Shown: positions 27,972 to 43,625 of the stretch, piece by piece | Numbering within the stretch: position 1 is the first letter of the stretch | Layout: every line of letters starts with the position of its first letter | Source: Bacilli bacterium | GTDB lineage: Bacteria; Bacillota_I; Bacilli_A; RF39; UBA660 | Reading direction: 5' to 3' | NCBI GenBank assembly: GCA_017626405.1 | Contig: JAGAIS010000007.1 | Span: 8,280 to 72,279, forward strand | Length of the DNA stretch: 64,000 nt | Made by a program: the position numbers and the translations under genes | Notes under the pieces: generated by a model | Told to the model about the DNA's origin: nothing | The model's input: only the letters and a program-made list of their open reading frames with translations | Database searches by the model: none

Positions 27972-28283
27972 GTGATTATTTTGGAAGTACTCGACTTAAA
28001 CATTTTGAAAAGTAAATCTAAATCATCCTTTAGAGAATTAGAAAAAGAAGTTTTAGATATTTATGAAATTAAATTTAAAAATACTTATGATGCTGGAATT
28101 ATTCTAAATTATATCATCGAAAAAAAAATATACCAAGTATATTGTTATATATATACTAAAGATCAAGTAGTTTCTGGATTAAAGAGCAAAACGTTTAATA
28201 ATAAAATAAAATCTATTCTATATTTTAATTACTTAAAAATACTTATTAATATAAAAGGATTAAAATTTTTTTTTGAAGATTGA
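27972..28283 (+). CDS. hypothetical protein (103 aa)
   Basis: ORF only; its stop abuts the tandem repeat tract. Confidence 0.3.
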   Translation: MIILEVLDLNILKSKSKSSFRELEKEVLDIYEIKFKNTYDAGIILNYIIEKKIYQVYCYIYTKDQVVSGLKSKTFNNKIKSILYFNYLKILINIKGLKFFFED

Positions 28284-28375
28284 TTACAGTTTTATTACAG
28301 TTTTATTACAGTCTTATTACAGTTTTATTACAGAAATAAAAAAAGATATAAAAAAGATATAAAAAAGATACTCAT
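28283..28375. repeat. two adjacent 11-nt tandem repeat tracts (ATTACAGTTTT x about 4.6, then AGATATAAAAA x about 2.5)
   Basis: Direct reading: ttattacagttttattacagttttattacagtcttattacagttttattacag... aaagatataaaaaagatataaaaaagata. Confidence 0.85.
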
Positions 28376-28522
28376 CGGATATTTACATTTATAAATGGCG
28401 ATATATAATTAAGTAAAATGAATTAATTGTCTGTTGGATGATTAGTTCATTTTTTTATTGGAGTGTGATTATTATGATTGTATGCAATTAAGGATTAATT
28501 ATACTAGAAAAGGACTGATATT

Positions 28523-28858
28523 ATGAAATTTATAAAAATTAAACCTACCAATAACTATAGTAATGAAAAGAGAATTAAACTATTTATAAAAGATAAATAT
28601 TATCTTAATAAAGTAACTTTCACATTAATACTAAATTATCCTTTAGAAATAATTAATGGAATACCTGATGAATTAATAATACCAGTTAATAATGGAATAA
28701 TTAATCAAGCTTATATTAAGAGATTAATTTATAGAGAATCAACTAATAAAGAAGAAATAATAAAAAAATATTTGGATATCCCAAATATTTTTTTATTTAA
28801 AGGGGTTAATTATATTTATACGAATTTAGAAAATTTAATTATAGAAATAGAGGAATAG
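28523..28858 (+). CDS. hypothetical protein, first gene of the Rhs toxin operon
   Basis: 111-aa ORF. Its stop lies 2 nt before the tail-collar gene start. Confidence 0.4.
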   Translation: MKFIKIKPTNNYSNEKRIKLFIKDKYYLNKVTFTLILNYPLEIINGIPDELIIPVNNGIINQAYIKRLIYRESTNKEEIIKKYLDIPNIFLFKGVNYIYTNLENLIIEIEE

Positions 28859-28860
28859 AA

Positions 28861-29529
28861 ATGAATAACGATTTATTTTTTAAAGATTGTTTCACAGAGG
28901 TAGAAGGGGGAATAAATGCCGAGTTTAATAAAGCTACGGTAAAATGTTTTAATTCAACAAATAATGCATTTAGTATGGACTGTGATGGTAACCTAGTCGT
29001 CAATAGTATTATGACAAGAGAAGGTAATTCACAAAATATTGATATTCAAACAGTAGTTGATAAAATCTATCCAATAGGATCAATTTATATGAGTGTAAAC
29101 ACAACAAATCCAAGTACATTATTTGGTGGAACATGGGAGCAAATCAAAGATAGGTTTTTACTATGCTCAGGTGATAAATATACCAATGGATTACAAGGCG
29201 GTGAAGAGACTCATCAATTAAATATTAATGAGATTCCTAGTCATAATCATTTAGTAAATATAAATACTAGTGAAGGCGGATATCATGCTCATAATTTAAG
29301 AAGAGATATGGGAGGAGCTGAATTTGGAATAAGCGGCGGTGGTGCAACGGGTAATGCTTTACATGGTACGTGGACAAATACTAATATATGGCCTAACTCT
29401 ATTGGCGCAGCTGGTAATGGAAATCATATTCATAACGTATATGGATACACTAGTGCTAATGGAGGCAATTTAGCACATAATAATATGCCACCATACTTAA
29501 CTGTATGTGTTTGGAAAAGAGTTGCATAA
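28861..29529 (+). CDS. phage tail-collar domain protein (PF07484-like; microcystin-dependent-protein/baseplate-wedge-like)
   Basis: Motifs IYPIGSIYMS...LFGGTWEQI, GGEETHQLNINEIPSHNH and NNMPPYLTVCVWKR are the hallmark blocks of the tail-collar fold. Confidence 0.7.
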   Translation: MNNDLFFKDCFTEVEGGINAEFNKATVKCFNSTNNAFSMDCDGNLVVNSIMTREGNSQNIDIQTVVDKIYPIGSIYMSVNTTNPSTLFGGTWEQIKDRFLLCSGDKYTNGLQGGEETHQLNINEIPSHNHLVNINTSEGGYHAHNLRRDMGGAEFGISGGGATGNALHGTWTNTNIWPNSIGAAGNGNHIHNVYGYTSANGGNLAHNNMPPYLTVCVWKRVA

Positions 29530-29555
29530 AGCAGCTCTTTTATATAGGAGGAAAA

Positions 29556-32500
29556 ATGAAAGAAATAATAGAATTAAGAAAAGAAAGGGAAAAACATTAT
29601 TTAAATAATGACGGAACTGTAACTGCATATATGTATAATGAAGATATTCATTATTTAGAAAATGGTGAATATAAAGAAATCGATAATACTCTAGTAGAAG
29701 AAGATGGGTATATTACTAATAAAGCTAATAATTTTAAAATAAGACTTAATAAAAATAAATATTTAGTTAAGATAGAATTAAATGAAAAAGAATATTTGAA
29801 TATATCGTTAAGAAATGCTAATGCCGTTTCAGCTCATATTCTTAATAATGAAGTAATGTATAAAGAAATATTATCTAATATAGATATCCAATATTTAGTA
29901 CATGGGAAAACATTGAAAGAAAATATTATATTAAAAGATAAATTAAATAGTAACATTGTATTTAATATAGAAACAAATTTAGAATTAGTTATAAGTGATT
30001 CAAAAGTTCTAGCTAAAAATGGTGATAATATCATATATGTTTTTAATCCATTATTTATGATTGATGCGAAAGAACAAATAAATAATAATTGCAATTATAA
30101 ATTAACAAAATTAGAAAATGGATATGAATTAGAATTTATTCTTGATGAAAAATATTTAATTGAAGCAGAATATCCTATAGTTATAGATCCTACAGTAACT
30201 ACTGATAATTTAGAAAATGTTGAAGATATTACTTTATATTCTAGTCAACCGGATCATGCAGCTGCAAATACAAACTATTTATCAGTCGGTAGTGATGCTA
30301 ATGGTATTATGAGAACTTTATTAAAGTTTGATTTACCGAAAATAGCAACTGGGAATAATATAATTAAAGCTACTGCTTATCTAAAACATTTCGGGTCATA
30401 CATTAATGAAAACCCTAAAACTATTGGTGTGTATGAAGTAACAACTAATTGGAGTGAATCTACAGCAACATGGAATAATATGAATAATAATTATAATCCT
30501 AAAATGGAAACTTATTTAACTCCACCACAAATGGTTGATACAAATTCTTCATTTGACATAGATTTAACGAATATAGTTAAAAGATGGTATTCTGATAAAG
30601 AAAATAAAGGAATAATGTTAAAATGTTTAGATGAAAGTTATGATTCTACAATGCCATATTACTCATTTTATTCAAAAACTTATGATTATTTAAATAGTAC
30701 GACTTATCGTCCACTATTAACTATTGAATATCGTTTGCAAAATGGGCTACTAGATTATATGACTTATGAAAATGTGTCTTTTTCAATCGGCAATAGTTAT
30801 GTTAACAATTGTACCGGAAATTTTTCAAATGTAGTATCTTTGTCTGAAATATTAGACAGTACATGTTTGTTTGAAATGTCATTAACTTATAATACGCATG
30901 ATGTGATATTAAATAAGAATAATAAATTTGGGCTAGGTTTTAATATTAGTTATAATGACACTATTGAAGAAACCATAAATAAATATATGGAGAAGGAATA
31001 CAAATATACATGTTCAGATGGAACTAGTCATTATTTTTATAAATATATAAAAGAAGACGGAACCGATAGTGGGGAATACCATGATGAGGATGGTTTCTCT
31101 TTAACATTAGAAATAAAGAACGAAACTACTAAAGAATTCATTTTAAAAGACAAAAATAATAATGTATATAATTTTACAAATGGCTTTTTATCTAAAATAG
31201 AATATGCTGATAAAACTTATGTAAATATTACAAGAGATTTTGAAAATAAAATTACATCAATAAAAGATAGTAAAAATAATGAAGCAACTATCAGTTATTA
31301 TGAAAATAAAGTTATTTTTGCTAATGGAAACAAAAATATTACAATCAATATTTCTAACAATAAATTGACAAGTATAGTATGTAAAAATGGAAATCTTAGT
31401 TTTGAATATAATAGTAATTCTTTGATTTCTAAAATAATTGATACTAATGGACTTAGTATGGGTGTTGATTATTATAATATTGAACCATATAAAGTAAGTA
31501 AAATAACTGAATATGGTTTAAATAATGAAGAAGGTAAATCTAAATCTTTTGTTTATGAATTTAATTCAACAACGGTAACAGATAATCAAGACATTAAAAT
31601 GAGATATACATTTAATAATTTAGGTAATACTATTAGTACTGTTTTAATTAGTGACGATAATTCTTTAAAAAAATCTTATGGTTTTTCTAGTACATATGTA
31701 AATGAATTAAAAACACCAATAACAAATAAACCTTTAGCTTCAACTTTACCGATAAAATATGGTGAAAACCTGATTAAAAATGGTAGTTTTGAAACTGATG
31801 AAAAGAACTTCTTTACTAACTTTAGAAGTAGTGAAGATAGTTTTTCAGGAAGTTATTCAGTCAAAATAGAAAGTTATGGTTGTGCAGAGCTAGATAGAAT
31901 TCTTGAAAAAGATAAAACCTACACTTTTAGTGCATATTTTAAAAATAATGATATAATTGATATTCAAGTTTATGGTACGAGAGCAACTGGTCAAGATATA
32001 ATATACGAAGAAACTATTATGCCTAATTCTGAATTTACAAAATGCGATTTTACATTCGATGTAACTTATGGTTATTCTTGCGTAGGTTTTACAATTGACG
32101 TTAGAAATGATGGTATTGCATACATAGATGATGTGGTAATAAATGAAGGTGATGTTGCAAATAATTGCAATTTGATAGATAACTCAAATTTTGTTAAAGG
32201 TATTGATGGATGGAATGTTAGTGGAAGTATTGATGGTTCAGACGATATTGTAGCTAATCCATATGAAATTATTACTTTACCATCCAATGAAAAAGCAATC
32301 CAATTAAATAGTATTGTTAATGGTAGTGTATCGTTGTTAAAAACACTTAACATATCTGGTAAAAAAGGTGATACATTTACTTTTTCATTCTGGTATAAAA
32401 ACGAGGGAGTTCTAGATACAAGTTATAATATGGTTGGTAATTTGGTATCATTAACATTTTTTGATTCTAATTCTGAATTCGGTGAATGTATTAATAATGT

Positions 32501-35500
32501 TATTTTAAACTATCATGCTGATAATTGGCAATTTCATACAGAAACATGTATAGCTGAAAACGACTTTGATTCAATAGACATTAGAGTGTTTAGTATTTAT
32601 GAAACAAATCATTTACTTTTAACTAATTTTTCTCTTACTAGAGATTTAGGGTCTTTCTTTTATGAATACGATGAAAACGGAAATTTAATATCGACTATTT
32701 ATCCAGATAATAGTAAGATAAAAATGGCATATGATAAAAATAACCAATTACTGGGAGTCTTTGATGTTAAAGGTAATAATTACAGTTATGAATATGATAA
32801 TATAAAAACAGATAGATTATTAAAAGGAATTAGTCCGACAGGAATATCAAACGAAATAAAATATGATAGTTTTGGTAATCCTGTGAGAACTATAATAAAT
32901 AATGTTAATCCAAATGGTAATGAAATAAGTGGCGATTATTATATTCGATCAAAAGGAACAGATAAATATATTACACCTAATTTAAAAACAGGAGAGTTAT
33001 CACTAAAAAATGATACTTGTAGTCATTATTCTTTTTCAATAGTAAACCATAATGAAACTGAAACCAATACAAAAGTATATAATTTTACATCTTCTATTTT
33101 ACCAAACTATAAATTAACAAAATTAGAAGATAAAGCTATTCTTCAAAAAGATTCAACAGGCACTTATTTTGAATTAATTCAAAAAAATAATGGTTCATAT
33201 AATATTAAAGTATATAAAGAAGACTTATATCTTAAGGTAAATGAAGGTAGAATATCTTTAGCAAACCTAAAAGACACATCAGATTTTGAATTTTATTTTG
33301 AAACCACAAATTCTGATGAATTTATTGAAAATAGAGCCGAGTATACAGTTGATGGTAAACATATTACTAAAATTATAGATAGTTTAGGTAAAGAAACTAC
33401 ATATAGCATTAATAATGATACTGGATTAATAGATTATACTGTTTATCCTAATAATGAAAAATATATATATGAGTATAATGACAAAGATGAATTAATACGC
33501 TTATCTAAGGATGAAAAAAATATAAATTATACATATAGCAATCAGTTATTAAAAAGTGTGACTTCTGGAAATAAAACAGTTACATTTAATTATGATAATT
33601 TCTTAAATCCTTCTGAAATAAAAATTAATAATAAACTTTTAGTTAAAGATAATTATCAGTTTGATAAATTGACATCAAAAAATTATGGAAATGGGTCAAG
33701 TATTAAGTATTATTATGATGAATTAAATAGAATAAGTAAAGTTGAAAAAGAAGATAGAGTGTTTACATATAAATATAATAATTTAGGAACTCTAGACTCG
33801 ATAATAGATCATTCAACAAGTGGATATAATTATAGTTTAAAATTTAATTATGACTTTGCAAATAGATTATCTAATATTAAATGTAAAAATATGAGAATTG
33901 AATATGTTTATGACACATTTGGAAATATAATCCAAGAAAAAAATGCTTTAAATAATACTACTCATAATTTAGAATATAGTTTTAATCAAAATAATATATT
34001 AACCAAAATAAAGATAGATGATGATGCCATAAATTACAACTACGACAATTTAGAAAGATTAACAAGTGTAAATATAAATAATAATATAAAAACAGAATAT
34101 ACTTATAAAAAAATGGGTAAAAAATTATCTACTGTTATTAATACTATTAAAAAAGGAGAAGATCTATATCAATATTTTTATGATGAATTATACAACATTA
34201 TTAAGGTTACAAAAAATGGTAATACCAGTAAAGAATATGTTTATGACACTAATAATCAATTATTAACTGAAAATAATCATGATTTAAATATGAAGTTTAT
34301 ATATAATTATGATTCTGAAGGAAATATAACTTCAAAAAAAATCTTCAATTTAGAAGATAATACGTTAATTAAAGAGGACACATATGCTTATTCAAATGTT
34401 GAATGGGAAGACGAATTAACTAGCTTTAATAATGAAAATATATGTTATGATGACATCGGAAATCCAATAAGCATTGGAAATAAAACATTAAATTGGGAAA
34501 ATGGAAAAGAATTAAAATCGTATTGCGATGATATAAATACATTTGAATATTCATATAATGTTGCTGGTTTTAGAACAAATAAAAAGATTAATAATAAATT
34601 AATTGAATACTATTTAGATGATGATAAGGTTTTATTTGAATATAGCGATGATTATGTGTTATACTTCATGTATGATGATAATGATAATTTGATTGGATTT
34701 AAGAAAAACGACCAAACTTATTACTACAATAAAAATTATCAAAATGATATTATTGGAATTTATGATAATAATTATAATGAAGTTGTTAAGTATAACTATG
34801 ATTCATGGGGAAAATTAGTTTCTATTTTGGATGCTAATAATAAAGAAATTATAGATAAAAACAACATAGGAATGATAAATCCATTTAGATACAGAAGTTA
34901 TTATTATGATCAAGAAACAGGTTTATATTATTTAAATAGTAGATATTATAATCCAGAATGGGGAAGATTTATTAATTCTGATAAGATTGCTTTTTCGAGC
35001 AATGGATTATTTGGAATAAACTATTACTTATATGCTAATAATAATCCAATTAATTATATTGATTCGAATGGTGATTTCCCTTTTGCTATACCAGTGCTTG
35101 GCGCAGCAGAAATAGCCGCAGGGTTTGTTTTAGCTGCTACACTAATCTATGCTACTGCAAAAGCTATACAAAGTGTCGGTCCCATTTCGATTGATTTAGA
35201 TCTAAACGTAAGTACTCCTCCTAAAAAGGAAAAAAAATCAAAGAAAAAAAATGATAAAGATGGTAAAAATTGTTATATATATGGATTATATAATGGTACT
35301 AAAATTGAGTATGTTGGAAGAACATATGATTTGAAAGTTAGAGAAGCTCAGCATAAGCGAACTATTAGAAAAGACTTAGAAATGCATAAAATTCATACAA
35401 CTACATCATATGAAGATTGTCGAGCATACGAGCAATACTATATTGAAAAATATAAAACGCTGAATAGAGTGATAAAAAAATCGGAAAGAATTAACAATCA

Positions 35501-35588
35501 AAGAAACGGCGTGGCAATAGATTCTCCATTCTATAGAGATTATGTTAGACCATTGAAAACAGTTTATGGAGAAACATACGTAGGATAA
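29556..35588 (+). CDS. Rhs/YD-repeat polymorphic toxin (2010 aa) with two CBM_4_9-like modules, RHS core and a C-terminal GIY-YIG nuclease-like toxin domain; no signal peptide
   Basis: ATG 29556 follows TAGGAGG. NLIKNGSFE / NLIDNSNFVKGIDGW CBM-like motifs. Many YD repeats (YDxxGN, YxYD). RHS core end PFRYRSYYYDQETGLYYLNSRYYNPEWGRFINSD. Putative autoproteolysis region IDSNGDFPF. C-terminal CYIYGLYNGTKIEYVGRTYDLKVREAQHKR...N matches the GIY-x10-YxG...R...H...N nuclease motif. Confidence 0.85.
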   Translation: MKEIIELRKEREKHYLNNDGTVTAYMYNEDIHYLENGEYKEIDNTLVEEDGYITNKANNFKIRLNKNKYLVKIELNEKEYLNISLRNANAVSAHILNNEVMYKEILSNIDIQYLVHGKTLKENIILKDKLNSNIVFNIETNLELVISDSKVLAKNGDNIIYVFNPLFMIDAKEQINNNCNYKLTKLENGYELEFILDEKYLIEAEYPIVIDPTVTTDNLENVEDITLYSSQPDHAAANTNYLSVGSDANGIMRTLLKFDLPKIATGNNIIKATAYLKHFGSYINENPKTIGVYEVTTNWSESTATWNNMNNNYNPKMETYLTPPQMVDTNSSFDIDLTNIVKRWYSDKENKGIMLKCLDESYDSTMPYYSFYSKTYDYLNSTTYRPLLTIEYRLQNGLLDYMTYENVSFSIGNSYVNNCTGNFSNVVSLSEILDSTCLFEMSLTYNTHDVILNKNNKFGLGFNISYNDTIEETINKYMEKEYKYTCSDGTSHYFYKYIKEDGTDSGEYHDEDGFSLTLEIKNETTKEFILKDKNNNVYNFTNGFLSKIEYADKTYVNITRDFENKITSIKDSKNNEATISYYENKVIFANGNKNITINISNNKLTSIVCKNGNLSFEYNSNSLISKIIDTNGLSMGVDYYNIEPYKVSKITEYGLNNEEGKSKSFVYEFNSTTVTDNQDIKMRYTFNNLGNTISTVLISDDNSLKKSYGFSSTYVNELKTPITNKPLASTLPIKYGENLIKNGSFETDEKNFFTNFRSSEDSFSGSYSVKIESYGCAELDRILEKDKTYTFSAYFKNNDIIDIQVYGTRATGQDIIYEETIMPNSEFTKCDFTFDVTYGYSCVGFTIDVRNDGIAYIDDVVINEGDVANNCNLIDNSNFVKGIDGWNVSGSIDGSDDIVANPYEIITLPSNEKAIQLNSIVNGSVSLLKTLNISGKKGDTFTFSFWYKNEGVLDTSYNMVGNLVSLTFFDSNSEFGECINNVILNYHADNWQFHTETCIAENDFDSIDIRVFSIYETNHLLLTNFSLTRDLGSFFYEYDENGNLISTIYPDNSKIKMAYDKNNQLLGVFDVKGNNYSYEYDNIKTDRLLKGISPTGISNEIKYDSFGNPVRTIINNVNPNGNEISGDYYIRSKGTDKYITPNLKTGELSLKNDTCSHYSFSIVNHNETETNTKVYNFTSSILPNYKLTKLEDKAILQKDSTGTYFELIQKNNGSYNIKVYKEDLYLKVNEGRISLANLKDTSDFEFYFETTNSDEFIENRAEYTVDGKHITKIIDSLGKETTYSINNDTGLIDYTVYPNNEKYIYEYNDKDELIRLSKDEKNINYTYSNQLLKSVTSGNKTVTFNYDNFLNPSEIKINNKLLVKDNYQFDKLTSKNYGNGSSIKYYYDELNRISKVEKEDRVFTYKYNNLGTLDSIIDHSTSGYNYSLKFNYDFANRLSNIKCKNMRIEYVYDTFGNIIQEKNALNNTTHNLEYSFNQNNILTKIKIDDDAINYNYDNLERLTSVNINNNIKTEYTYKKMGKKLSTVINTIKKGEDLYQYFYDELYNIIKVTKNGNTSKEYVYDTNNQLLTENNHDLNMKFIYNYDSEGNITSKKIFNLEDNTLIKEDTYAYSNVEWEDELTSFNNENICYDDIGNPISIGNKTLNWENGKELKSYCDDINTFEYSYNVAGFRTNKKINNKLIEYYLDDDKVLFEYSDDYVLYFMYDDNDNLIGFKKNDQTYYYNKNYQNDIIGIYDNNYNEVVKYNYDSWGKLVSILDANNKEIIDKNNIGMINPFRYRSYYYDQETGLYYLNSRYYNPEWGRFINSDKIAFSSNGLFGINYYLYANNNPINYIDSNGDFPFAIPVLGAAEIAAGFVLAATLIYATAKAIQSVGPISIDLDLNVSTPPKKEKKSKKKNDKDGKNCYIYGLYNGTKIEYVGRTYDLKVREAQHKRTIRKDLEMHKIHTTTSYEDCRAYEQYYIEKYKTLNRVIKKSERINNQRNGVAIDSPFYRDYVRPLKTVYGETYVG

Positions 35589-35624
35589 CAAAATATAGCC
35601 AATTTTGACGAAAGGGATAAGTAT

Positions 35625-36659
35625 ATGGAAAATAAAAAAACTTTAATGAATTGTGAACATGGAGATACATTTGCTCTAAGAATAGTTTCAAATCAAGAAT
35701 ATAAAGATAGATATTTGATTTTTATTAGGTTTGAAACTGATTTATATGAAGATGAAAAAAATTCTAATGATACAAGTAAGCTTTTTCGAGTTAAACTCAC
35801 TAAAAATAAAGAACTTCCAAAAAGTTTTGAAGAGTTAGAGGAACTACCTTATATTATTTGTAAAATAACTTGTTATGCAAAGAGATATTGGCCATTAGAT
35901 TCTGATATGGAATATAAAGAGATAGTAGAAAAATATAAAAATGTAAAATATTATCCGGACAAATACAATTATTTATATTCATATTTGCTTATCTTGAGTG
36001 ATTATAGATGCAAAAGATATGTAAAAAACTACGTCTATTTAGGGAATTTTTCTCTAACTCCACCAGAAAAAGAATACTTTCCAGTTGATATATTTGGTAA
36101 CGTTTTTCTTCTTATAGATGATTTAGAAAGATATTGTTTGAAAAGCTATCATGAGCATAATTTGAAAAAAGGAAAAGAATATTCTGAAGAAGCCGCAAAA
36201 GAAAACAACGCTTATGCGGAGGAAGAAGTGAAAATTCAAATGGAACTTCATAATAATATAAGAAAAAGAAATAACAAAATTTTAATAACTTCAATATCTG
36301 GATGGGGAACGGGACTATATGATTGTGATACAGCGTTGGATATGAGAGATGATTATCAAAGGTATTTATTAGAATATGATTATAAAGAAGTTTTAATATT
36401 AATGAAAAAGCAATATAAAGATTTTTTAAACGATAGAGAAGAAAAAACAATATTTTGGATGGTTATTGCTGATCAAGAAATAAAAAGAAAGATACTTATT
36501 CCTGAAGTAAAAGAAAAAGCGTTAAAGTCTATAGAAGATAATTTAATTATTTGGAAAGAATTAGATCCTAAGAATTATAATATTAGAAAACAAAAATTGT
36601 ATGGATTAAAAAAAAGAATCAACGATTTTAAAAATGCTAACATAAAAAGAGATTTTTGA
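35625..36659 (+). CDS. putative cognate immunity protein of the Rhs GIY-YIG toxin (344 aa, possibly two fused immunity domains)
   Basis: Immediately downstream of the toxin gene. Cytoplasmic. C-terminal GWGTGLYDCDTALDMRDDY block resembles a DUF4259-type immunity motif (from memory). Confidence 0.5.
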   Translation: MENKKTLMNCEHGDTFALRIVSNQEYKDRYLIFIRFETDLYEDEKNSNDTSKLFRVKLTKNKELPKSFEELEELPYIICKITCYAKRYWPLDSDMEYKEIVEKYKNVKYYPDKYNYLYSYLLILSDYRCKRYVKNYVYLGNFSLTPPEKEYFPVDIFGNVFLLIDDLERYCLKSYHEHNLKKGKEYSEEAAKENNAYAEEEVKIQMELHNNIRKRNNKILITSISGWGTGLYDCDTALDMRDDYQRYLLEYDYKEVLILMKKQYKDFLNDREEKTIFWMVIADQEIKRKILIPEVKEKALKSIEDNLIIWKELDPKNYNIRKQKLYGLKKRINDFKNANIKRDF

Positions 36660-36687
36660 AAACATCTCTTTTTTATATGGAGGAACT
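36646..36687 (+). terminator. hairpin + TTTTTTATATGGAGGAA junction motif, copy 1 (terminator-like; overlaps the immunity gene stop)
   Basis: AAAGAGAT-loop-ATCTCTTT then TTTTTATATGGAGGAACT. Nearly identical to the sequence at 41963-42004. Confidence 0.55.
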
Positions 36688-36804
36688 ATGAGATACGAAA
36701 TGAATAATATCAAACATTGTCCAATTAAAGGGGTTACAGCAGTCACTGTAACCTCTAAATTTGGACCAAGAACATTTTACAATAGAGTAGAAGGATGCGA
36801 TTAA
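36688..36804 (+). pseudogene. duplicated 5' fragment (38 codons) of the M23 peptidase gene found intact at 42005
   Basis: MRYEMNNIKHCPIKGVTAVTVTSKFGPRTFYNRVEGCD* vs MRYKMNNIKHCPIKGVTAVTVTSKFGPRRFYNRVEEKYESGHH. About 95% nt identity over about 130 bp, then divergence and a stop. Confidence 0.8.
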
Positions 36805-37322
36805 ATGTGAAGAAGAAATTATACTATAATATTGTATGCTATGATGTTTTAATAATAATGATATATGCAGTTGCAGGTATAGCTTTTTTCTTTGCATTTA
36901 ATACATTTATTGGTTTATTTACAATTATTCCAATTGTATTGGAATCGAAAAGATTAGTAAAAAACATTCAAAATATACCTTTAGTTATAGAAAAAACTGA
37001 AAATGGAATCATACTATATGAAAGTTCAAACGTTATTTTAACTGATAAGTCTTTGATTAGCCTAAAAAGATACATTTTTTCTATTGACTATCTTAATATT
37101 AACGATATTTATATAAGCAATGAATATTTTATATATGAACATGCACAAAACTTATGTTTACTTTCTAATGAAAATAAAAAATATAAAATTGTGTATATAT
37201 ATACTCTTTATTCACTTTTAACATATAAGCATGAAATAAAACAAATTCTAGAAATAATAAAAACATATAATAAAAATATTGAACTATATGGCAAAATAAA
37301 AGAAATATATGAAAAAGAATAG
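36795..37322 (+). CDS. hypothetical membrane protein (possible orphan immunity protein)
   Basis: 175 aa, N-terminal TM pair. Located between the M23 fragment and the orphan rhs-CT. Confidence 0.4.
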   Translation: MRLNVKKKLYYNIVCYDVLIIMIYAVAGIAFFFAFNTFIGLFTIIPIVLESKRLVKNIQNIPLVIEKTENGIILYESSNVILTDKSLISLKRYIFSIDYLNINDIYISNEYFIYEHAQNLCLLSNENKKYKIVYIYTLYSLLTYKHEIKQILEIIKTYNKNIELYGKIKEIYEKE

Positions 37323-37355
37323 TAATGGTTCAAGAAAAATGATTATAGTGGTTCA

Positions 37356-38393
37356 TTGATAGGATTTAAATATAATAATGAAATATACTATTATCAAAAG
37401 AACTATCAAAATGATATAACAGGAATCTATGATAGTAGTTATAACTTAGTGGTAATATATAAATATAATGGATGGGGTAAAGTATTATCAGTAGTAGATA
37501 ATACAACAAATAATATAGGAAGTATAAATCACTTCAGATATAGAAGTTATTATTATGATGAAGAGACAAGTTTATATTATTTAAATAGCAGATATTATAA
37601 TCCAAAATGGTGTAGATTTATAAATGCCGATGGAATAATAGGAGCAAACCAAGATATCTATAGTTATAATCTATACTTATATTCAAGCAATAATCCAATA
37701 AAAAATTATGATTCTGAAGGAAAATCTATATTTGGTGCCATAGCTATTTGTGGTATAATTGGTGCTGCATTGAATGTTGCTCCAACATTTATAGGGGATG
37801 TAGCGAAATCTATAAAGAACAAAAAGGTAACATACTCAGGATGGAAAGCATATGCATCTGGAGCTATAGGAGGCGCAGTAGGTGGCGCAGTTGGATATTT
37901 ATGTCCGGGAGCATATTTTGCACCAATAGTTGCTTCATCATTAACAACATCTGTTTCAAATTCTCTTTTTAATAAAAAAGACCTGGATAAAACAGTAGAA
38001 ACCGCTCTAAGTGATGTAATTATAGATACAACAGTTGGAAGATTAACGAAGAATATAAAGATTCCTAAAATAAACTCTGGGAAAAATAGTTTTGCATCAG
38101 TTTTTAAGTCTGGTATAACAAAACTTAATAAAAAAACTGTAAAAAATATGTCGTTAAAAGTAATTGCAAAAGGTGTAACTTCAGAAAGTGTTTCATCTTC
38201 AATTGACTCGTCAATAGCATATTATCCAAAAAAAATAGTTGAGGATCTAAAAGAACAATCAAATGTAGTAGTTAAAGATAATGACTATGTTAGTAATTGT
38301 ATTGAGTGTTCAAACCCATCACATAATTACCCAACACTAATCCATAATGATAATAGAAATGATTATTATTGTTTATGTGTTAAGTGGGATTAG
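37356..38393 (+). CDS. orphan rhs C-terminal toxin module (RHS core end + glycine-zipper/Cys-rich toxin domain), TTG start, no ATG
   Basis: LIGFKYNNEIYYYQKNYQNDITGIYD...HFRYRSYYYDEETSLYYLNSRYYNPKWCRFINADGI is homologous to residues about 1715-1830 of the main Rhs. Divergent CT with GAIGGAVGGAVG glycine zipper and C-terminal CxxC...YYCLCVKWD. Confidence 0.75.
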   Translation: MIGFKYNNEIYYYQKNYQNDITGIYDSSYNLVVIYKYNGWGKVLSVVDNTTNNIGSINHFRYRSYYYDEETSLYYLNSRYYNPKWCRFINADGIIGANQDIYSYNLYLYSSNNPIKNYDSEGKSIFGAIAICGIIGAALNVAPTFIGDVAKSIKNKKVTYSGWKAYASGAIGGAVGGAVGYLCPGAYFAPIVASSLTTSVSNSLFNKKDLDKTVETALSDVIIDTTVGRLTKNIKIPKINSGKNSFASVFKSGITKLNKKTVKNMSLKVIAKGVTSESVSSSIDSSIAYYPKKIVEDLKEQSNVVVKDNDYVSNCIECSNPSHNYPTLIHNDNRNDYYCLCVKWD

Positions 38394-38447
38394 ATTATTA
38401 TTTGACTAAAATAATTATATAAAATATAATTAAAGTGGTGATATACT

Positions 38448-39242
38448 ATGGAAAGTACAAAATTTTTATTATTTGTAGGTATTATATTTTTGTTAGGGTT
38501 TATCATTGCTTTATTAAAAAGTATATATAAAGACATTAAAAAATATAAGAGTTTTGATGTTACAAATGTGAATGCAAAAATATATTATGAGCGTCAGCAA
38601 TGCAAAGAAAAAATTATCACTATGATAATAGGGCTTATTATTGTAATCGCATTTTTTCTTTATTGTATAATTAATCTCCCTAAAAAAATAGTTGGTACCT
38701 ATGATAACAATTATATGATAGAAAAATGTCAAATTGTCGATTATATAGAAAAACCAAAAGGAGCTTATAACGAAATGAGTTGCCATAGTGATAACTTTGA
38801 TATTACCAATGATTCTTTTGTAAACAAAAGTGGCGAGGAATTTTACTACGATGATATTGGCAAATACGCTTGTATAAAGTATTACCCAGATATGTATGTT
38901 GTTGAAATTATGAAAATAAGTGACAATGAGAACCTTATATGTGATAATTTTTATTGGCCAGGAAAAAACATCAACGATAAAACAAATTATAACTATTCGG
39001 TTATAAAATGTAATATTAAAAAGAATGATAATGGAAAAATTAATTGTGTATATGGATCAAATTTAAAAATAAATAATGTGACTTTACTTAACGAAAAAGA
39101 CATTAAAGAAAAAAGTCACGTTTGTCTAAAATACTATTGGGATAATAATACTGGTAAAATACTATATGTTAATGATACTAATAAAAACTTTAACTGCGAT
39201 AGATATTTAAAAACAGAAGAAGAAAAAGATAAAAAAGAATAG
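38448..39242 (+). CDS. putative immunity protein A (two-TM membrane protein with Cys-containing domain), cassette 1
   Basis: Follows the orphan toxin. Paralogous to 40433-41251 (shared blocks GTYDNNYMI, YACIKYYP, ICLKYYW..NTGKIL). Confidence 0.55.
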   Translation: MESTKFLLFVGIIFLLGFIIALLKSIYKDIKKYKSFDVTNVNAKIYYERQQCKEKIITMIIGLIIVIAFFLYCIINLPKKIVGTYDNNYMIEKCQIVDYIEKPKGAYNEMSCHSDNFDITNDSFVNKSGEEFYYDDIGKYACIKYYPDMYVVEIMKISDNENLICDNFYWPGKNINDKTNYNYSVIKCNIKKNDNGKINCVYGSNLKINNVTLLNEKDIKEKSHVCLKYYWDNNTGKILYVNDTNKNFNCDRYLKTEEEKDKKE

Positions 39243-39253
39243 AGATAAAGTTT

Positions 39254-39832
39254 ATGAGTGAAATATTTTTAAGATTTATACAAATTGGAGCAATGTGTAT
39301 ATCAATTTCTTTTATTGCTAAGATTACATCATCTAAAAATTTTAATGATATAAAAACAAAAAATGGATATTCATCAAAAAAAATTAAAGGTTATATCTCT
39401 TCTGATTTAGATGGGTATAAAAAAATTGTATTCGTATTATCTTTAATATTCTTTTTGTTAACAATCTATTTTTTAACTATTTATTTTCTAAAAATAAATG
39501 GCTATATAGTAGTACAAGAAAGCGAAAAAAATAATTCATTAAAAATAGCGTGCTTGATGTTTATTATATTTTTATTTAATTATTATATATTCATTTATAC
39601 ATCAAAAAGCAAGATATATTTTAATGATCAAGAAATTATAAAGTACAGGTTAATTGGAAAAAAACAAGTATTAAAATTTAGCGATATAGAAAAAGTTGTT
39701 GCTACACCAACCTCTAAATTAATATTGTATTCAAAAAATAATAGATTGGTTTTTGAATTAGAAAAATCAAATAGTAATAAGTTTATTGCACTACTTGCGA
39801 AAAAAGGGATAGATATTAATTACAAAATGTAA
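39254..39832 (+). CDS. putative immunity protein B (membrane protein with bacterial-PH-like C-terminus), cassette 1
   Basis: Paralogous to 41278-41835 (IYFN..EIIKYR.IG..Q.LKFSD..KV). Confidence 0.5.
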   Translation: MSEIFLRFIQIGAMCISISFIAKITSSKNFNDIKTKNGYSSKKIKGYISSDLDGYKKIVFVLSLIFFLLTIYFLTIYFLKINGYIVVQESEKNNSLKIACLMFIIFLFNYYIFIYTSKSKIYFNDQEIIKYRLIGKKQVLKFSDIEKVVATPTSKLILYSKNNRLVFELEKSNSNKFIALLAKKGIDINYKM

Positions 39833-39848
39833 AAAAATCTTAATGCAT

Positions 39849-39884
39849 AGGAGATATATTAAAAATATATCTCCTTTATATATG
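39849..39884 (+). terminator. hairpin + TTTATATATGGTGGAA junction motif, copy 2
   Basis: AGGAGATATATT-AAA-AATATATCTCCT perfect 12-bp stem, then TTTATATATGG. Confidence 0.55.
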
Positions 39885-40393
39885 GTGGAACGACCTCGTT
39901 ATTACCATTTGGCGGTGTAATTTCTATAGCATCTTCATCTATTGCTGAGTCAGTTACTACATCACTATTTGATAAAAAAAATGTAAAAGAGACTGCCGAA
40001 TACGCTTGTAACAATTTAGTTGAAGATTTAACAACAGGATTAGTATCATCCCTTATAAAAATTCCAGGATTAAATGCAGGAAGAAATAGTTATAATGCTG
40101 TTTTTAAATCTGGAATAACTAAAATATCTAAAAATACAGCTGCAAAAATATCTTTTAAAGTAATAGCTAAAGGAGTTGCAGTAGAAAGTTTTGGTACATT
40201 TACTACTGAAATACTCAAAAAAGGTTATGAAGTTTTAACTAAAGAACTTCCTAAAAATCCACAGCAGGCTGTTAATAATGAAGATAATAATCATAATAGA
40301 ATAGAATGTTGCAATCTTACACAAAACTATCCAACATTAGCTCATAGTAATACACAAGATAATTATTATTGCTTATGTGCTAGATGGGATTAA
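39863..40393 (+). pseudogene. 5'-truncated orphan toxin C-terminal fragment (homologous to the CT of 37356-38393), no start codon
   Basis: Open frame ...GGTTSLLPFGGVISIASSSIAESVTTSLFDKK...NAGRNSYNAVFKSGITKISKNT...CCNLTQNYPTLAHSNTQDNYYCLCARWD* aligns with ...FAPIVASSLTTSVSNSLFNKK...NSGKNSFASVFKSGITKLNKKT...NYPTLIHNDNRNDYYCLCVKWD*. Confidence 0.7.
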
Positions 40394-40432
40394 TTTAGTA
40401 TCTATATAGCATTTATTGACTTATTAATATGA

Positions 40433-41251
40433 TTGGAATATACTAAAATTGGTGATAAGATGGTTGAAAACAAGTTTTTAATAGTTATAATTTTGATTGT
40501 AATACCTGCTTTTTTAATATATTTTTGTGTTTGCTTTTATAAGCTATTAAAAAAGTTAAAAAAATTGAAAAAGTCTATGGAATCAGATAAAAAAAATCTT
40601 AAGATTTATAGTGAATATCAACGACATAAATATAGCGTAATTGCTTATGTTATTTTGATGCCAATTGTTTTTATATTATTAATTTATGGTTTTTTAGATA
40701 ATTCTAAAAGGCTTACAGGTATTTATGATAATAATTATATGATTCAAAAATGTGAGATAACAGAAGTGGATGAAGGTAGGTCACGTGCTGATAAAATAAG
40801 TTGTAAGAATGAAAATTTTTATACAAAGTATACAGTTGTTGAATATGGAGATTTAGATTACGAAGATGAAAGAAAATATGCTTGTATAAAGTATTATCCA
40901 AATGTGGAAGTAGCAGAAGTATTAAGAATAGATAACAAGGACAATTTATCCTGTGAAGAATTTTATTGGTCAAAAGAAAATGATAAATCAACTAATCTTA
41001 ATTATTCAGTTTTAAAATGTGATGTAAATGCTATTAATAGCAATATAATAGATTGTTCTATTGAATCTAGTACAAAAATATCCAATATAAAAATAGAAAA
41101 TGAAAAAAATATAAAAGAAAAAGATGGTATTTGCTTAAAATACTATTGGAGTGATAATACAGGAAAAATATTGGAAGTTAATCAATCTAATGAAAACTTT
41201 AGTTGTGATAAGTATATAAAACAGGAAGAAACTAAAGATAATACGAACTAG
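40433..41251 (+). CDS. putative immunity protein A', cassette 2
   Basis: Paralog of 38448-39242. Confidence 0.55.
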   Translation: MEYTKIGDKMVENKFLIVIILIVIPAFLIYFCVCFYKLLKKLKKLKKSMESDKKNLKIYSEYQRHKYSVIAYVILMPIVFILLIYGFLDNSKRLTGIYDNNYMIQKCEITEVDEGRSRADKISCKNENFYTKYTVVEYGDLDYEDERKYACIKYYPNVEVAEVLRIDNKDNLSCEEFYWSKENDKSTNLNYSVLKCDVNAINSNIIDCSIESSTKISNIKIENEKNIKEKDGICLKYYWSDNTGKILEVNQSNENFSCDKYIKQEETKDNTN

Positions 41252-41277
41252 TTTTTAAAATAAGCAGGAGTTAATCT

Positions 41278-41835
41278 ATGGATAGAATATTTATAAGATT
41301 TTTAGAAATATCATGTAGTTGTTTTTTATGGGTTGCAACCTTTAAGTTAGGGAAATGGATACTTACAGTAAAAAGGAAGAATAATTTCTTAGTTACTAAA
41401 AATAAGAAAGATTATGTAAGCATTAGCAATGATCGTTATAAAGGAGTATTATTTGTTGTTTTAATTATTGCTCTTATACCTTCTTTATTTTTTACTATAA
41501 GTGGACTATTAGGTGTTAAAGATGTTGAAGGTAATAATGTAATATTTATAGCAATGGTATTTTGGGTAATAGTATTTTTATCTTTAATTTTATTAATTTA
41601 TTATTTTCGATGCAAAATATATTTCAATAATGATGAAATTATCAAATATCGTTTTATCGGACATAGACAAAAATTAAAGTTTTCTGATGTAAAAAAAGTC
41701 ATGGTTAAACCACTATCAGGTATAGTATTGTATTCAGAAAATGGTAAATTAAAAGTGGACTATGACAATCCTAATGCCAGTAAATTAGTCTCTATACTAG
41801 AAAAGAAAGGTTTCATTGTTAACTATAAAATATAA
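41278..41835 (+). CDS. putative immunity protein B', cassette 2
   Basis: Paralog of 39254-39832. Confidence 0.5.
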   Translation: MDRIFIRFLEISCSCFLWVATFKLGKWILTVKRKNNFLVTKNKKDYVSISNDRYKGVLFVVLIIALIPSLFFTISGLLGVKDVEGNNVIFIAMVFWVIVFLSLILLIYYFRCKIYFNNDEIIKYRFIGHRQKLKFSDVKKVMVKPLSGIVLYSENGKLKVDYDNPNASKLVSILEKKGFIVNYKI

Positions 41836-41962
41836 ATATAGTTCTTATATTAAATAATAGTATTTTTTATCTATCCAAAGCTACCTCATCAATGGTAACT
41901 TTAAATTGCTATCAAATCATAAATGCATCAAATTTTTAAAAATAACGAGTTACAAACACTCT

Positions 41963-42004
41963 AGAGATATACTATAAAATATCTCTTTTTTATATGGAGG
42001 AATT
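41963..42004 (+). terminator. hairpin + TTTTTTATATGGAGGAA junction motif, copy 3, immediately upstream of the intact M23 gene RBS
   Basis: AGAGATAT-ACTATAAA-ATATCTCT then TTTTTTATATGGAGGAATT ATG. Confidence 0.55.
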
Positions 42005-42649
42005 ATGAGATACAAAATGAATAATATTAAACACTGTCCAATTAAAGGGGTTACAGCAGTCACTGTAACCTCTAAATTTGGACCAAGAAGATTTTACAAT
42101 AGAGTAGAGGAGAAATATGAATCTGGACATCATAATGGAATTGATATAATTGGTGGAGATACCATTGTTGCTGCTTATGATGGGGTAGTTACTAAAACTA
42201 GAAATGGAGTAAAAGGATATTCAACTAAAAACTCGTGTGGTAATTATGTTACTATCGATCATGGCAATGGGTATACTACTGTTTACTATCATTTAAAACT
42301 AGATTCAATCAAAGTAAAAAAAGGGGATCGTGTTATTGCTGGTCAAGAAATAGGTTTAATGGGAAATACAGGACATTCAATATCTAAACACTTACACTAT
42401 GGAATTAAAAGAAATAATGTATGGATTAACCCGGAGCCATTTCTTAACAATACAAAAAATATTGAAAATACTAGTAATATAAAAGAAACTAATAATAAAG
42501 AAATAATATATGTCGTAAAAAAGGGTGATAATTTAACTAAAATAGCTAAAAAATATAATACTACTTGGAAAGCAATTTATAAAAAAAACAAGGAACTTAT
42601 TGGGGATAATCCCAATCTTATACTTGTTGGATGGAAATTAAAAATATAA
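42005..42649 (+). CDS. M23 family metallopeptidase with C-terminal LysM domain (peptidoglycan endopeptidase, endolysin-like)
   Basis: HxxxD (HHNGIDI) and HLH (HLHYGI) M23 motifs. C-terminal LysM (YVVKKGDNLTKIAKKYNTTWKAIYKKN). No signal peptide. Confidence 0.8.
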   Translation: MRYKMNNIKHCPIKGVTAVTVTSKFGPRRFYNRVEEKYESGHHNGIDIIGGDTIVAAYDGVVTKTRNGVKGYSTKNSCGNYVTIDHGNGYTTVYYHLKLDSIKVKKGDRVIAGQEIGLMGNTGHSISKHLHYGIKRNNVWINPEPFLNNTKNIENTSNIKETNNKEIIYVVKKGDNLTKIAKKYNTTWKAIYKKNKELIGDNPNLILVGWKLKI

Positions 42650-43017
42650 TTGATTTAAAAATAATAGCAAGTACGTTTATTTTTTTAGTTGGTGGTTTTG
42701 ATAATATGTTTATTACTCTTTTAATTTTTATTGCTCTTGATTATATAACAGGTATAATTAAAGCAATTTATCAAAAAAAATTAAATAGCAAATTGGGATT
42801 AAAAGGATTTTTAAAAAAATTAGGTTATATTTTGATAGTAATAGTTGCAAGTTTATTTGATTCAATTATAGGAGATAAACAAATGGCGATAAGAACATTA
42901 TGCATATATTTTTTTATATCTAACGAAGCCATTTCAATACTTGAAAATTGGGCAGTTATGGGCCTTCCTCTTCCGAAAAAGATATTTCAAGTGTTTGAAT
43001 CTTTAAAAGAAGAATAA
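42631..43017 (+). CDS. TcdE/phage_holin_4_1-family holin-like protein (toxin-secretion/lysis holin)
   Basis: 3-TM, 128 aa. Blocks KIIASTFIFLVGGFDNMFITLLIFIALDYITGIIKA and NEAISILENWAVMGLP are characteristic of this holin family. Overlaps the M23 gene end by 19 nt. Confidence 0.65.
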   Translation: MEIKNIIDLKIIASTFIFLVGGFDNMFITLLIFIALDYITGIIKAIYQKKLNSKLGLKGFLKKLGYILIVIVASLFDSIIGDKQMAIRTLCIYFFISNEAISILENWAVMGLPLPKKIFQVFESLKEE

Positions 43018-43021
43018 ATGT

Positions 43022-43079: not shown

Positions 43080-43589
43080 ATGATTGATTCAATTTCAGCT
43101 AAGGACTTTGTTGAATTACCAGATATTATGTTAGATAAATCTAAGAATGTAAAATATATTCAACTATTAAGTGAGAATACAATAGATGACTATTACTATT
43201 CAAATTTGCGAAAAGATTTAGAAGTTATATTTAATAAGTTCAAAGATTCTAAATATCTTATACATTATCAAAATGACTATAACTTAAAATCTAATCCTTT
43301 TGAAATTAATAGAAATACCAATAGAATTAATGATAAAGTAGGAAACTATATTGAGAAAAAATTAGATCTAAGTATTTGGTCAAAAGATCTTTATAACATC
43401 TTAATCAATCTATCCGAAGAACTGACAATAAAGGAGACAATATATTTAACTTCTACATTCTTTGATAATAAAACAGAAGAAGAAATAGAAGAACTAATGG
43501 ATATTTCAAGAAAAATGTTATATAAAATAAAAAAGAGTTGTCTAGTAAAATTAAGATTAGAATTTTCAAAATATAATTTAATTGATTAG
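43080..43589 (+). CDS. small sigma-70 region-4-like / ArpU- or TcdR-like transcriptional regulator (hypothetical)
   Basis: 169 aa. C-terminal EEEIEELMDISRKMLYKIKKSCLVKLR resembles a sigma region-4 HTH. Located next to the holin. Confidence 0.35.
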   Translation: MIDSISAKDFVELPDIMLDKSKNVKYIQLLSENTIDDYYYSNLRKDLEVIFNKFKDSKYLIHYQNDYNLKSNPFEINRNTNRINDKVGNYIEKKLDLSIWSKDLYNILINLSEELTIKETIYLTSTFFDNKTEEEIEELMDISRKMLYKIKKSCLVKLRLEFSKYNLID

Positions 43590-43591
43590 AG

Positions 43592-43625
43592 AAGTGTGAT
43601 TTTTTTCACACTTCTTTTTAATTTT
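43592..43625 (+). terminator. rho-independent terminator (AGAAGTGTGA..TCACACTTCT + T-run)
   Basis: Perfect 10-bp stem and T-run. Confidence 0.7.

Follow-up and report, generated by a model that had tools for sequence, protein, structure and literature searches.

How a large toxin without a secretion signal might leave a Gram-positive cell is the question raised by the locus described here, which lies in a stretch of 64,000 nt (hereafter the window; positions 8,280 to 72,279 of contig JAGAIS010000007.1, assembly GCA_017626405.1) from a member of the gut Bacilli, and which is centred on a gene for an Rhs protein of 2010 amino acids (aa). To our knowledge, interbacterial antagonism is almost uncharted in these abundant and uncultured bacteria, which were formerly known as 'Tenericutes' or 'Mycoplasma sp. 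CAG'. In the literature consulted, the described export routes of large Rhs toxins of Gram-positive bacteria are the Sec pathway, used by WapA, and the type VII secretion system (T7SS). Some members of the bacterial teneurin-like YD proteins reported in 2026 have no signal peptide or obvious delivery machinery (PMC13018210).

An initial annotation of the window had described the Rhs protein as a polymorphic toxin with a GIY-YIG nuclease-like tip, lying between a phage tail-collar protein and a presumed immunity gene. In this paper, we have analysed the surroundings of the gene in the window and at related loci from other genomes (numbered L001 and so on). We find that it belongs to a module of ~15.6 kb (~27972-43617), at the distal end of which stands a phage-type lysis cassette; the initial annotation, which stopped at 36659, had left this cassette unseen. 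On balance we believe that the locus is a chromosomal toxin module of gut Bacilli, in which an Rhs polymorphic toxin is combined with a phage-derived fibre tip, an array of immunity and orphan toxin genes, and holin/M23-dependent release.

The Rhs protein and its nuclease tip

The start of the Rhs gene at 29556 is supported by a ribosome-binding site (AGGAGG), which sits 7 nt upstream of the ATG, and by the N-termini of six Rhs homologues, which share the form MKE(L/I)I.LRK; an alternative in-frame ATG at 29505 would add 17 residues, has no ribosome-binding site and is unmatched by the homologues. The extent of the protein as initially annotated is therefore confirmed. An open reading frame (ORF) of 2010 codons in DNA of 25% G+C (24-34% across the window), together with the E-values obtained, is far beyond chance. 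Signal peptides were judged by Kyte-Doolittle hydropathy, the maximum of which over the first 60 aa of the Rhs protein is -0.21 (15-residue span); the N-terminus is strongly charged, and the Sec signal peptide that marks WapA-type proteins was not seen there by this measure. LXG, WXG and PAAR families are likewise absent from the matches to the protein (Pfam at E<=10 for aa 1-440 and at E<=0.01 for the whole protein, NCBIfam at E<=1 for the whole protein), as had been claimed.

The architecture proposed for the rest of the protein also holds, since the profiles for the two CBM_4_9-like carbohydrate-binding modules (CBMs), the long YD-repeat shell and the Rhs core all give significant matches (Table 1), and a hydrophobic helix follows the core. 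The core contains the motif region …SRYYNPEWGRFINSD…NNPINYIDSNG, from which the tip is predicted to be released by autoproteolysis inside the shell. Five Rhs homologues are 36-55% identical to the window protein up to the core and are unrelated to it thereafter, except that of L006, which has the same tip; a hydrophobic segment similar to that of the window is found downstream of the core in L001, in L006 and in an orphan fragment of L009. The locus shows all the testable features of an Rhs polymorphic toxin.

The N-terminal region, overlooked before, consists of DUF7948 and a DNRLRE/CBM96 domain, which are the sole Pfam matches to aa 1-440 at E<=10. At the level of sequence, this carbohydrate-binding region is shown to resemble a phage distal-tail protein: the N-terminal ~370-400 aa align by tblastn with gp18 of siphophage PBC1 and its relatives (24% identity, E 1e-8), and phrog_37549 is matched with an E-value of 1.8e-11, while a search of the PDB with the profile of the N-terminal domain gave no useful match. 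The phage homologues are labelled 'virion structural / putative YD repeat protein' in the Bacillus siphophages PBC1, Carmen17, Wes44 and BCE1, and their gene lies directly downstream of the tape-measure gene, in an arrangement that has been termed atypical organisation C (PMC9128512). The homology covers the N-terminal ~370 aa (DUF7948 and DNRLRE). Beyond that the proteins differ: the YD protein of PBC1, Carmen17 and Wes44 is ~1060 aa long and a part of the virion, with no Rhs core, toxin tip or immunity gene annotated.

As for the tip, the initial annotation had assigned the final 165 aa to a GIY-YIG domain. The GIY-YIG motif set is present, together with its downstream Asn (Y1909, Y1919, G1921, R1922, R1929, H1933, R1956, E1959 and N1981, with R1929 at the canonical Arg position); the nuclease is, however, confined to the last ~105 aa, the other ~65 being the hydrophobic helix and a Lys-rich linker. 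The tip alone scores 19.7-20.1 bits (E ~1e-3) against PF01541, below the gathering score of 22.6; a word-index homologue search with it returned the window's own fragment as the single match, and a PDB sequence search returned no useful match. As its own Pfam score is sub-threshold, its assignment rests on evidence from the family and from structure prediction. A HMMER search of 1.84 billion representative sequences with the tip gave 95 proteins at E<=0.001, including several Rhs proteins of ~2040 aa, and in 93 examined proteins (88 to 2075 aa) about 20-30 residues at most separate the match from the C-terminus. In an alignment of 42-43 members, the positions Y15, Y25, G27, R28, T29, H39, R62, E65 and N87 (Y1909, Y1919, G1921, R1922, T1923, H1933, R1956, E1959 and N1981 of the window protein) show full or at least 90% conservation. 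PF01541 matches 34 of 43 family members at E<=0.01 (best E 9.6e-8), and the best PDB matches of the family profile are the UvrC N-terminal domain, T4 EndoII and I-TevI. The structure predicted by AlphaFold2 with a 42-sequence alignment has the beta-beta-alpha-beta-alpha core of GIY-YIG nucleases and a mean confidence (pLDDT) of 87.4; a poor single-sequence model (pLDDT 58) was set aside.

The tip is a new member of a known toxin class and not a new architecture, because Zhang, de Souza, Anantharaman, Iyer and Aravind had defined Tox-URI1 and Tox-URI2 (URI being the GIY-YIG fold) at the C-termini of Rhs proteins in 2012 (PMC3482391); the claim that such a tip is undescribed on an Rhs protein is thereby withdrawn. 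The Tox-URI1 signature, 'Y, YxG, R, [RK]xxE, N' (PMC3482391), fits Y1909, Y1919-V-G, R1929, R1956-A-Y-E1959 and N1981 of the window tip, a likeness drawn from the published signature. As in the known Tox-URI Rhs toxins, the nuclease stands at the C-terminus and an immunity gene adjoins it. The differences are that the trafficking modes given for that class are T2SS, T5SS, T6SS (types II, V and VI secretion systems) and TcdB/TcaC, holins being unmentioned, and that its Tox-URI1 immunity families are Imm14, Imm26, Imm44 and Imm51 (PMC3482391), whereas the 344-aa protein encoded after the window tip reaches no Pfam family. By its family, the GIY-YIG domain would cut the DNA of a target cell.

Fibre tip, lysis cassette and their linkage to the Rhs gene

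The gene directly upstream of the Rhs gene had been taken for a phage tail-collar protein (PF07484). This identity is ruled out: the Collar profile gave no match to 28861-29526 at a threshold as loose as E<=10 (very weak matches may be lost in the HMMER filters), and PF21939 (Gp10_C) is matched instead, with an E-value of 3.4e-22 over profile positions 2-139 of 139. Furthermore, the profile of the 222-aa family matches the C-terminal domain of T4 gp10 (2fkk; E 2.9e-9, from residue 55 to the end), and the PHROG matches are the C-termini of tail and tail-fibre proteins. The broader claim, namely that a phage-derived fibre or baseplate-type protein is co-transcribed upstream of the Rhs gene, is thus upheld. 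In T4 the domain ends a baseplate wedge protein of 602 aa; here, by contrast, it forms a free-standing protein of 165-480 aa with several HxH motifs, encoded beside a toxin. A further gene, for a 111-aa protein, precedes it. Hidden Markov models (HMMs) of the 111-aa and Gp10_C proteins match one and the same ORF in L006, L019, L022 and L032 and separate ORFs in the window, L001 and L002; the 111-aa protein is therefore homologous to the N-terminal part of Gp10_C proteins of 350-480 aa, which have been split in two in the window. The first gene of the module encodes a small protein, 'up2' (~100 aa, 106-164 aa in distant loci), which has no Pfam or PHROG match and has homologues at the same position in L001, L002, L005, L006, L008, L014-L017, L019 and L022. 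The Rhs, fibre-tip, 111-aa and M23 proteins all have low hydropathy, and no signal-like segments are seen in these four; the up2, 111-aa and 222-aa proteins all lack signal peptides.

The distal end of the module is formed by three genes. The first encodes an M23 endopeptidase with a LysM domain, whose PHROG matches are endolysin and metallo-endopeptidase; the second encodes a holin, for which a comparison with a TcdE sequence gave 29% identity and a pairwise E-value of 1e-12, a figure to be read as a lead only. The product of the third is a conserved protein of 169 aa, the C-terminus of which resembles sigma-70 region 4; this protein is a candidate for a dedicated regulator. TIGR02937 matches five of eight members of its family, with a best E-value of 1.5e-5 and all under the curated cut-off, and Sigma70_r4 is matched with E-values of 0.016-0.12. 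This gene is kept downstream of the holin gene in L001, L006, L008, L009, L014, L018 and L019, and a related gene of ~170 aa lies upstream in L020, L022 and L042.

We then asked how far these genes travel together. With the Rhs N-terminal alignment as query and one genome per species (GTDB), 32 loci were obtained, all from metagenome-assembled genomes (MAGs), labelled mostly as Bacilli, Firmicutes, 'Tenericutes', 'Mycoplasma sp. CAG:776', Candidatus Ventrenecus and Faecisoma; a Muribaculaceae label on three of the 32 is taken to be a binning error. In 28 of these 32 species-level loci, the gene that immediately precedes the Rhs gene encodes a Gp10_C protein. The neighbourhoods of five fibre-tip homologues all have the same order, i.e. 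a small protein, one to three Gp10_C genes, an Rhs gene of ~2000 aa, one to three small genes, M23 plus LysM, holin and the ~170-aa protein, while the Rhs tips vary (e.g. Tox-REase-7 in L005) and the flanks consist of unrelated housekeeping genes (e.g. rpoB/rpoC, RNase Y and PolC). Synteny between the M23/lysis cassette and the Rhs gene was found in the window and in L001, L005, L006, L008, L009, L011, L014, L018, L019 and L024; in the scan of the 32 loci, lysis genes were found in L014, L015, L016, L018, L019 and L024. Linkage between Rhs gene and cassette was seen in six or more different chromosomal contexts, e.g. beside rpoBC, RNase Y, UvrB and PolC.

Probable immunity gene, displaced cassettes and neighbouring DNA

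The ORF of 344 aa that follows the Rhs gene had been presumed to encode the immunity factor, and this presumption gains from the related loci. The protein has no Pfam (E 0.01), PHROG, NCBIfam or PDB relative, DUF4241 being the only Pfam match at E<=10 (E 0.09), and it has only five homologues among 5.8 billion proteins, one of which is an identical NCBI entry from a 'Bacilli bacterium' MAG. In L006, a full-length Rhs protein whose tip is 41% identical to that of the window is followed by a protein 38% identical to the 344-aa protein (E 6e-58). In L009, a sister strain with the same chromosomal site as the window, an orphan Rhs fragment of 343 aa with a tip of the same family is followed by a homologue that is 55% identical. 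Since the gene moves with the tip in three independent arrangements, which is the comparative signature of an immunity gene, the 344-aa protein is very probably the immunity protein for the GIY-YIG tip. The pair of a GIY-YIG tip and a rare, new immunity family is an ordinary addition to a known toxin class. The motif ISGWGTGLYDCDTALD occurs at positions ~225-240 of the 344-aa protein and is conserved in the L006 homologue. Three remoter database matches span only about a third of the protein, which may be a fusion of two domains.

Between the immunity gene and the lysis cassette lie orphan toxin cassettes, which the initial annotation had also overlooked. The tip of the orphan Rhs fragment at 37356-38393 is 53% identical to that of the main Rhs protein of L009, and a remnant further downstream and the immunity pair after it are nearly identical to the main tip of L009 and its pair (Table 1); on this comparison, older cassettes are shown to have been displaced downstream as orphans. 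The core-coding DNA is repeated between the main Rhs gene and the orphan with 71-85% identity, and the 5' junction of the M23 gene is duplicated after the immunity gene; we infer that both repeats are scars of the replacement of the main tip by an orphan one. The window and L009 do not differ at any residue of the holin and of the 169-aa protein (100% identity), but their M23/LysM proteins are only 58% identical (42005-42649 versus 11224-11844 of L009), which places a recombination breakpoint inside or beside the M23 gene. A membrane protein of 149-175 aa is encoded upstream of each orphan Rhs fragment (in L009 at 3133-3582 and 6339-6788), and 38 codons left over from the M23 gene stand in front of the first L009 copy. 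The gene for this membrane protein may be part of what is copied in tip swaps.

Upstream of the first gene of the module, a promoter scan found 154 sigma-70-like sites against 145 expected from shuffled controls; as this count is not above that of the controls in such AT-rich DNA, the best match, at 28382, is a weak candidate. No tRNA genes flank the module. On its 5' side it is adjoined, in the window and in L002-L004 and L011, by a gene for an OatA-like protein of 734 aa (acyltransferase_3 plus SGNH/GDSL; 25662-27866 in the window), and modification of the wall by this protein might affect sensitivity to the M23 endopeptidase or binding by the CBMs. Acyltransferase and module together are flanked by genes for two paralogous small proteins (25289-25609 and 44511-44858; 28% identical, E 3e-5), each with a MIFM start and a C-terminal zinc ribbon. 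Further upstream, type IV pilus-type genes (a PilC-like T2SSF protein and an A24 prepilin peptidase) and a DUF2207 membrane protein (18844-22739) stand beside a GH5 cellulase gene (22740-23915); the label of the genome is otherwise that of a reduced gut Bacilli MAG.

In the sister genomes of L003 and L004, a diversity-generating retroelement (DGR) precedes the Rhs module by a few kb (1306-5266; a MutS_I-like ORF, bAvd and RVT_1), where the window has the cellulase gene. Its 151-nt variable repeat (VR, 2844-2994) and template repeat (TR, 3149-3299) are 89% identical. Action of a DGR on the fibre-tip or Rhs genes was ruled out, the VR lying at the 3' end of an unrelated upstream gene of 565 aa, and no reverse transcriptase or bAvd was found among the flanking genes scanned in the window. 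L012, a metagenome contig with the same Rhs and immunity proteins as the window, carries a gene for a reverse transcriptase of 339 aa (RVT_1) directly upstream of a truncated Gp10_C gene of 146 aa (821-2292); no TR/VR pair was found in its first 9 kb, and the arrangement may be a rearrangement or an assembly chimera.

Table 1. Features of the toxin module in the window (all coordinates are those of the window).
Feature	Position	Strand	Basis or remark
up2, ~100 aa, function unassigned, first gene of the module	27972..28283	+	same position in relatives
Best sigma-70-like promoter match, TTTACA-16-TATAAT, weak candidate	28382..28409	+	promoter scan
111-aa protein, split-off N-terminal module of the fibre tip	28523..28858	+	HMM; ends 2 nt before next gene
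Phage fibre/baseplate-tip protein of 222 aa with Gp10_C domain and HxH motifs, without signal peptide	28861..29529	+	PF21939
Rhs polymorphic toxin without signal, 2010 aa	29556..35588	+	ORF, Pfam/NCBIfam, hydropathy, starts of homologues
DUF7948 (aa 46-213) and DNRLRE/CBM96 (aa 224-390), Rhs N-terminal region	29691..30725	+	PF25778 E 6.8e-6; NF033679 E 2.6e-27, PF24517 E 2.8e-13
Two CBM_4_9 modules, aa ~738-845 and ~872-1030	31767..32645	+	PF02018 E 4.4e-8, two stretches
YD/RHS repeat shell, aa 1034-1747	32655..34796	+	PF05593 E 1.6e-15 (segment alone E 9.4e-19), TIGR01643 E 7.5e-20, NF041261 E 2.8e-21
Rhs repeat-associated core, region of the autoproteolysis motif, aa 1748-1839	34797..35072	+	TIGR03696 E 9.5e-19
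First part of the variable cassette: hydrophobic helix, aa 1840-1872, then Lys-rich linker, aa 1873-1905	35073..35270	+	read from sequence
GIY-YIG (URI) nuclease toxin tip, ~105 aa (1906-2010)	35271..35585	+	motif, family profile, AlphaFold2
344-aa cytoplasmic protein, probable cognate immunity protein	35625..36659	+	homologues follow the same tip family in L006 and the L009 orphan
Recombination scar, 144-nt duplicate of the M23 gene 5' junction (35-codon remnant, 36688-36792)	36648..36791	+	92% identical
175-aa membrane protein upstream of the orphan Rhs fragment	36795..37322	+	L009 has two copies, 99% identical
Orphan Rhs C-terminal fragment: core and glycine-zipper-rich, membrane-type tip	37356..38393	+	TIGR03696 E 5.7e-16
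Membrane proteins of 264 aa and 192 aa, together a probable immunity pair to the orphan tip	38448..39832	+	same order in L009; weak DUF6560 match
Toxin-tip remnant without Rhs core, truncated	39884..40390	+	99.4% identical to tip of L009 main Rhs
Immunity pair, 272 aa and 185 aa, DUF6560-like	40433..41835	+	99% identical to pair after L009 main Rhs
M23 endopeptidase with LysM, 214 aa, no signal peptide, endolysin-type	42005..42649	+	PF01551 E 5.8e-24, PF01476 E 1.8e-11
Holin (Phage_holin_4_1), 128 aa, 19-nt overlap with the end of the M23 gene	42631..43017	+	PF05105 E 3.3e-37; phrog_199 E 1.1e-24
169-aa conserved protein, sigma-70 region-4-like C-terminus, candidate dedicated regulator	43080..43589	+	TIGR02937, Sigma70_r4
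Intrinsic-terminator-like hairpin closing the module	43588..43617	+	12-bp stem, then T run

Proposed release of the toxin, rival explanations and known systems

The lysis cassette is the component that, from the gene content, most plausibly explains the exit of the signal-less Rhs protein. As in type 10 secretion systems (T10SS), a holin and a signal-less hydrolase are encoded with a signal-less cargo, and the linkage of cargo and lysis genes is kept across genomes, outside prophages. In the mechanism that we propose, the sigma-like factor would turn the module on, in some cells; the Rhs shell would enclose the autocleaved tip, with the 344-aa protein shielding the DNA of the producer and its kin. 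The holin would then admit the M23 endopeptidase to the wall, which it would open, and the Rhs cocoon and fibre-tip protein or proteins would exit as a subpopulation lyses or, without lysis, along a route like that of type 10 systems. Once outside, wall polysaccharides or glycopolymers of related competitor bacteria would be the ligands of the fibre tip and of the three CBM-type modules, the hydrophobic helix would help the tip across the target membrane, and the GIY-YIG domain would cleave the DNA of the target.

Several points weigh against this reading. Release, binding, entry, DNase activity and neutralisation are all steps that we infer. The sigma-like assignment of the 169-aa protein stays under the curated cut-offs, as does the window's own tip under the Pfam gathering cut-off for GIY-YIG, and the 344-aa protein, which has no known family, is longer than immunity proteins usually are. 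In addition, ~4.5 kb of DNA downstream of the Rhs gene revealed no lysis cassette in L035, L036 and L040, which are more distant; as many loci also end early, the linkage is secure for L024 and the clade around the window and not for the whole Rhs family.

L035, L036 and L040 also show that the pair of Rhs and fibre tip can exist with no cassette beside it, which would suit an explanation in which toxin, tip and immunity are as described and export takes another route, T7SS-like or by some other translocon, the lysis genes being a linked, domesticated lysis or autolysin cassette with an unrelated job. A T7SS or other exporter may be encoded outside the window, the visible DNA being 64 kb of a genome. 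We nevertheless regard this explanation as unlikely, because the linkage recurs at several unrelated sites with the cassette always at the distal end of the toxin/immunity array, the repeats involved in cassette swapping include the 5' end of the M23 gene itself, and the Rhs protein has neither a signal peptide nor an LXG, WXG or PAAR match. A different use of the same parts would make the Rhs and Gp10_C proteins structural components of a phage or tailocin particle encoded elsewhere, i.e. a toxin-armed tail tip and not a free toxin, and the distal-tail position of the PBC1 and Carmen17 proteins that the Rhs N-terminal 400 aa resemble (PMC9128512), the baseplate/fibre-tip nature of Gp10_C and the phage-type lysis cassette all speak for it. 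However, inspection gene by gene of the flanks in the window and of L001-L013 and L036 revealed no capsid, tape-measure, tube, sheath or baseplate genes among the housekeeping neighbours, the Rhs N-terminus had no relative on 2.9 million viral contigs, and immunity genes and orphan arrays typify polymorphic toxins and not virion proteins; we therefore hold such a particle to be improbable. A prophage or tailocin origin of the whole island was ruled out on the same absence of structural genes and of relatives on viral contigs.

It is about equally improbable, in our judgement, that the released Rhs protein re-binds the wall of its producer through its CBM and DNRLRE domains and acts there as a WapA-like, contact-dependent inhibitor, the fibre tip being an anchor and not a ligand. 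The DNRLRE and wall-binding domains recall the wall-binding N-terminus of WapA of Streptococcus suis, and the window protein carries three CBM-type modules; yet WapA-type proteins have Sec signal peptides (PMC12704120), of which the window protein has none, and release by holin and endolysin implies that a part of the producing population is permeabilised. The genes themselves are compatible with a diffusible as well as a surface-bound mode of action.

How does such a module compare with known systems? The locus lacks the defining features of the WapA-type (Sec), LXG/T7SS, PAAR/T6SS, Tc (TcA) and tailocin systems. With WapA-type Rhs proteins (B. subtilis; S. suis, PMC12704120) it shares DNRLRE and a wall- or carbohydrate-binding N-terminus, polymorphic nuclease tips, immunity genes and orphans. 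WapA has a Sec signal peptide, however, and in S. suis also a SecF-like partner and sortase B, whereas the partners of the signal-less window protein are a fibre-tip protein and a lysis cassette. The Tc (ABC) toxins of Yersinia entomophaga, which leave the cell through a T10SS of holin and endolysin (PMC10847048, PMC10847046), are similar in their Rhs/YD cocoon with an autocleaved tip (here predicted from genes), their lack of a signal peptide and their phage-derived holin/endolysin cassette. Their release in a specialised subpopulation depends on the cassette (PMC10847048), a mode that is proposed here for the window locus. Tc systems are also Gram-negative and insect-targeting, with a TcA translocator, a spanin and no immunity gene. 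In the window there is no TcA or SpvB; the receptor-binding part would be the small fibre-tip protein together with the CBMs, and the immunity and orphan cassettes indicate bacterial targets, unlike those of Tc.

A further parallel is offered by the large clostridial toxins, which have no signal sequence and depend on the holin TcdE, with the sigma factor TcdR encoded in the same locus (PMC12150058). Both the pathogenicity locus (PaLoc) of C. difficile, with TcdR, TcdE and the endolysin remnant TcdL, and the TpeL/TpeE locus of C. perfringens (PMC12150058, PMC12485765) combine a large signal-less toxin with a holin, a peptidoglycan hydrolase and a sigma-type regulator, as the window does with its sub-threshold candidate; their cargo differs, being a host-directed glucosyltransferase toxin and not an immunity-paired Rhs protein, and they have no fibre-tip partner. 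In the full-text literature that we could search, most subscription papers being outside its coverage, no description was found of an Rhs protein linked to a holin/endopeptidase or to Gp10_C in Gram-positive bacteria. The initial annotation had called the whole combination undescribed; the GIY-YIG tip on an Rhs protein was known, and what survives as new is the conserved pairing of fibre tip and Rhs.

The logic of toxin and immunity is accordingly ordinary, and the new part is the accessory module, with its implications for export and targeting. More tentatively, and with somewhat less than even confidence, we suggest that the module represents an unrecognised Gram-positive delivery route, a 'tail-less' bacteriocin built from phage adsorption and lysis modules, with type-10-like release and an exchangeable fibre tip that docks on the Rhs N-terminus. 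In either case, the locus offers a testable answer to the question of how signal-less Rhs toxins exit Gram-positive cells, as the toxin array is joined on the chromosome to a dedicated lysis cassette of phage type and to a sigma-like regulator, paralleling the T10SS of Tc toxins and the clostridial PaLoc. It also suggests that targeting has been delegated to a separate protein of the phage receptor-binding type; if this is true, specificity and payload would be swapped independently in these bacteria.

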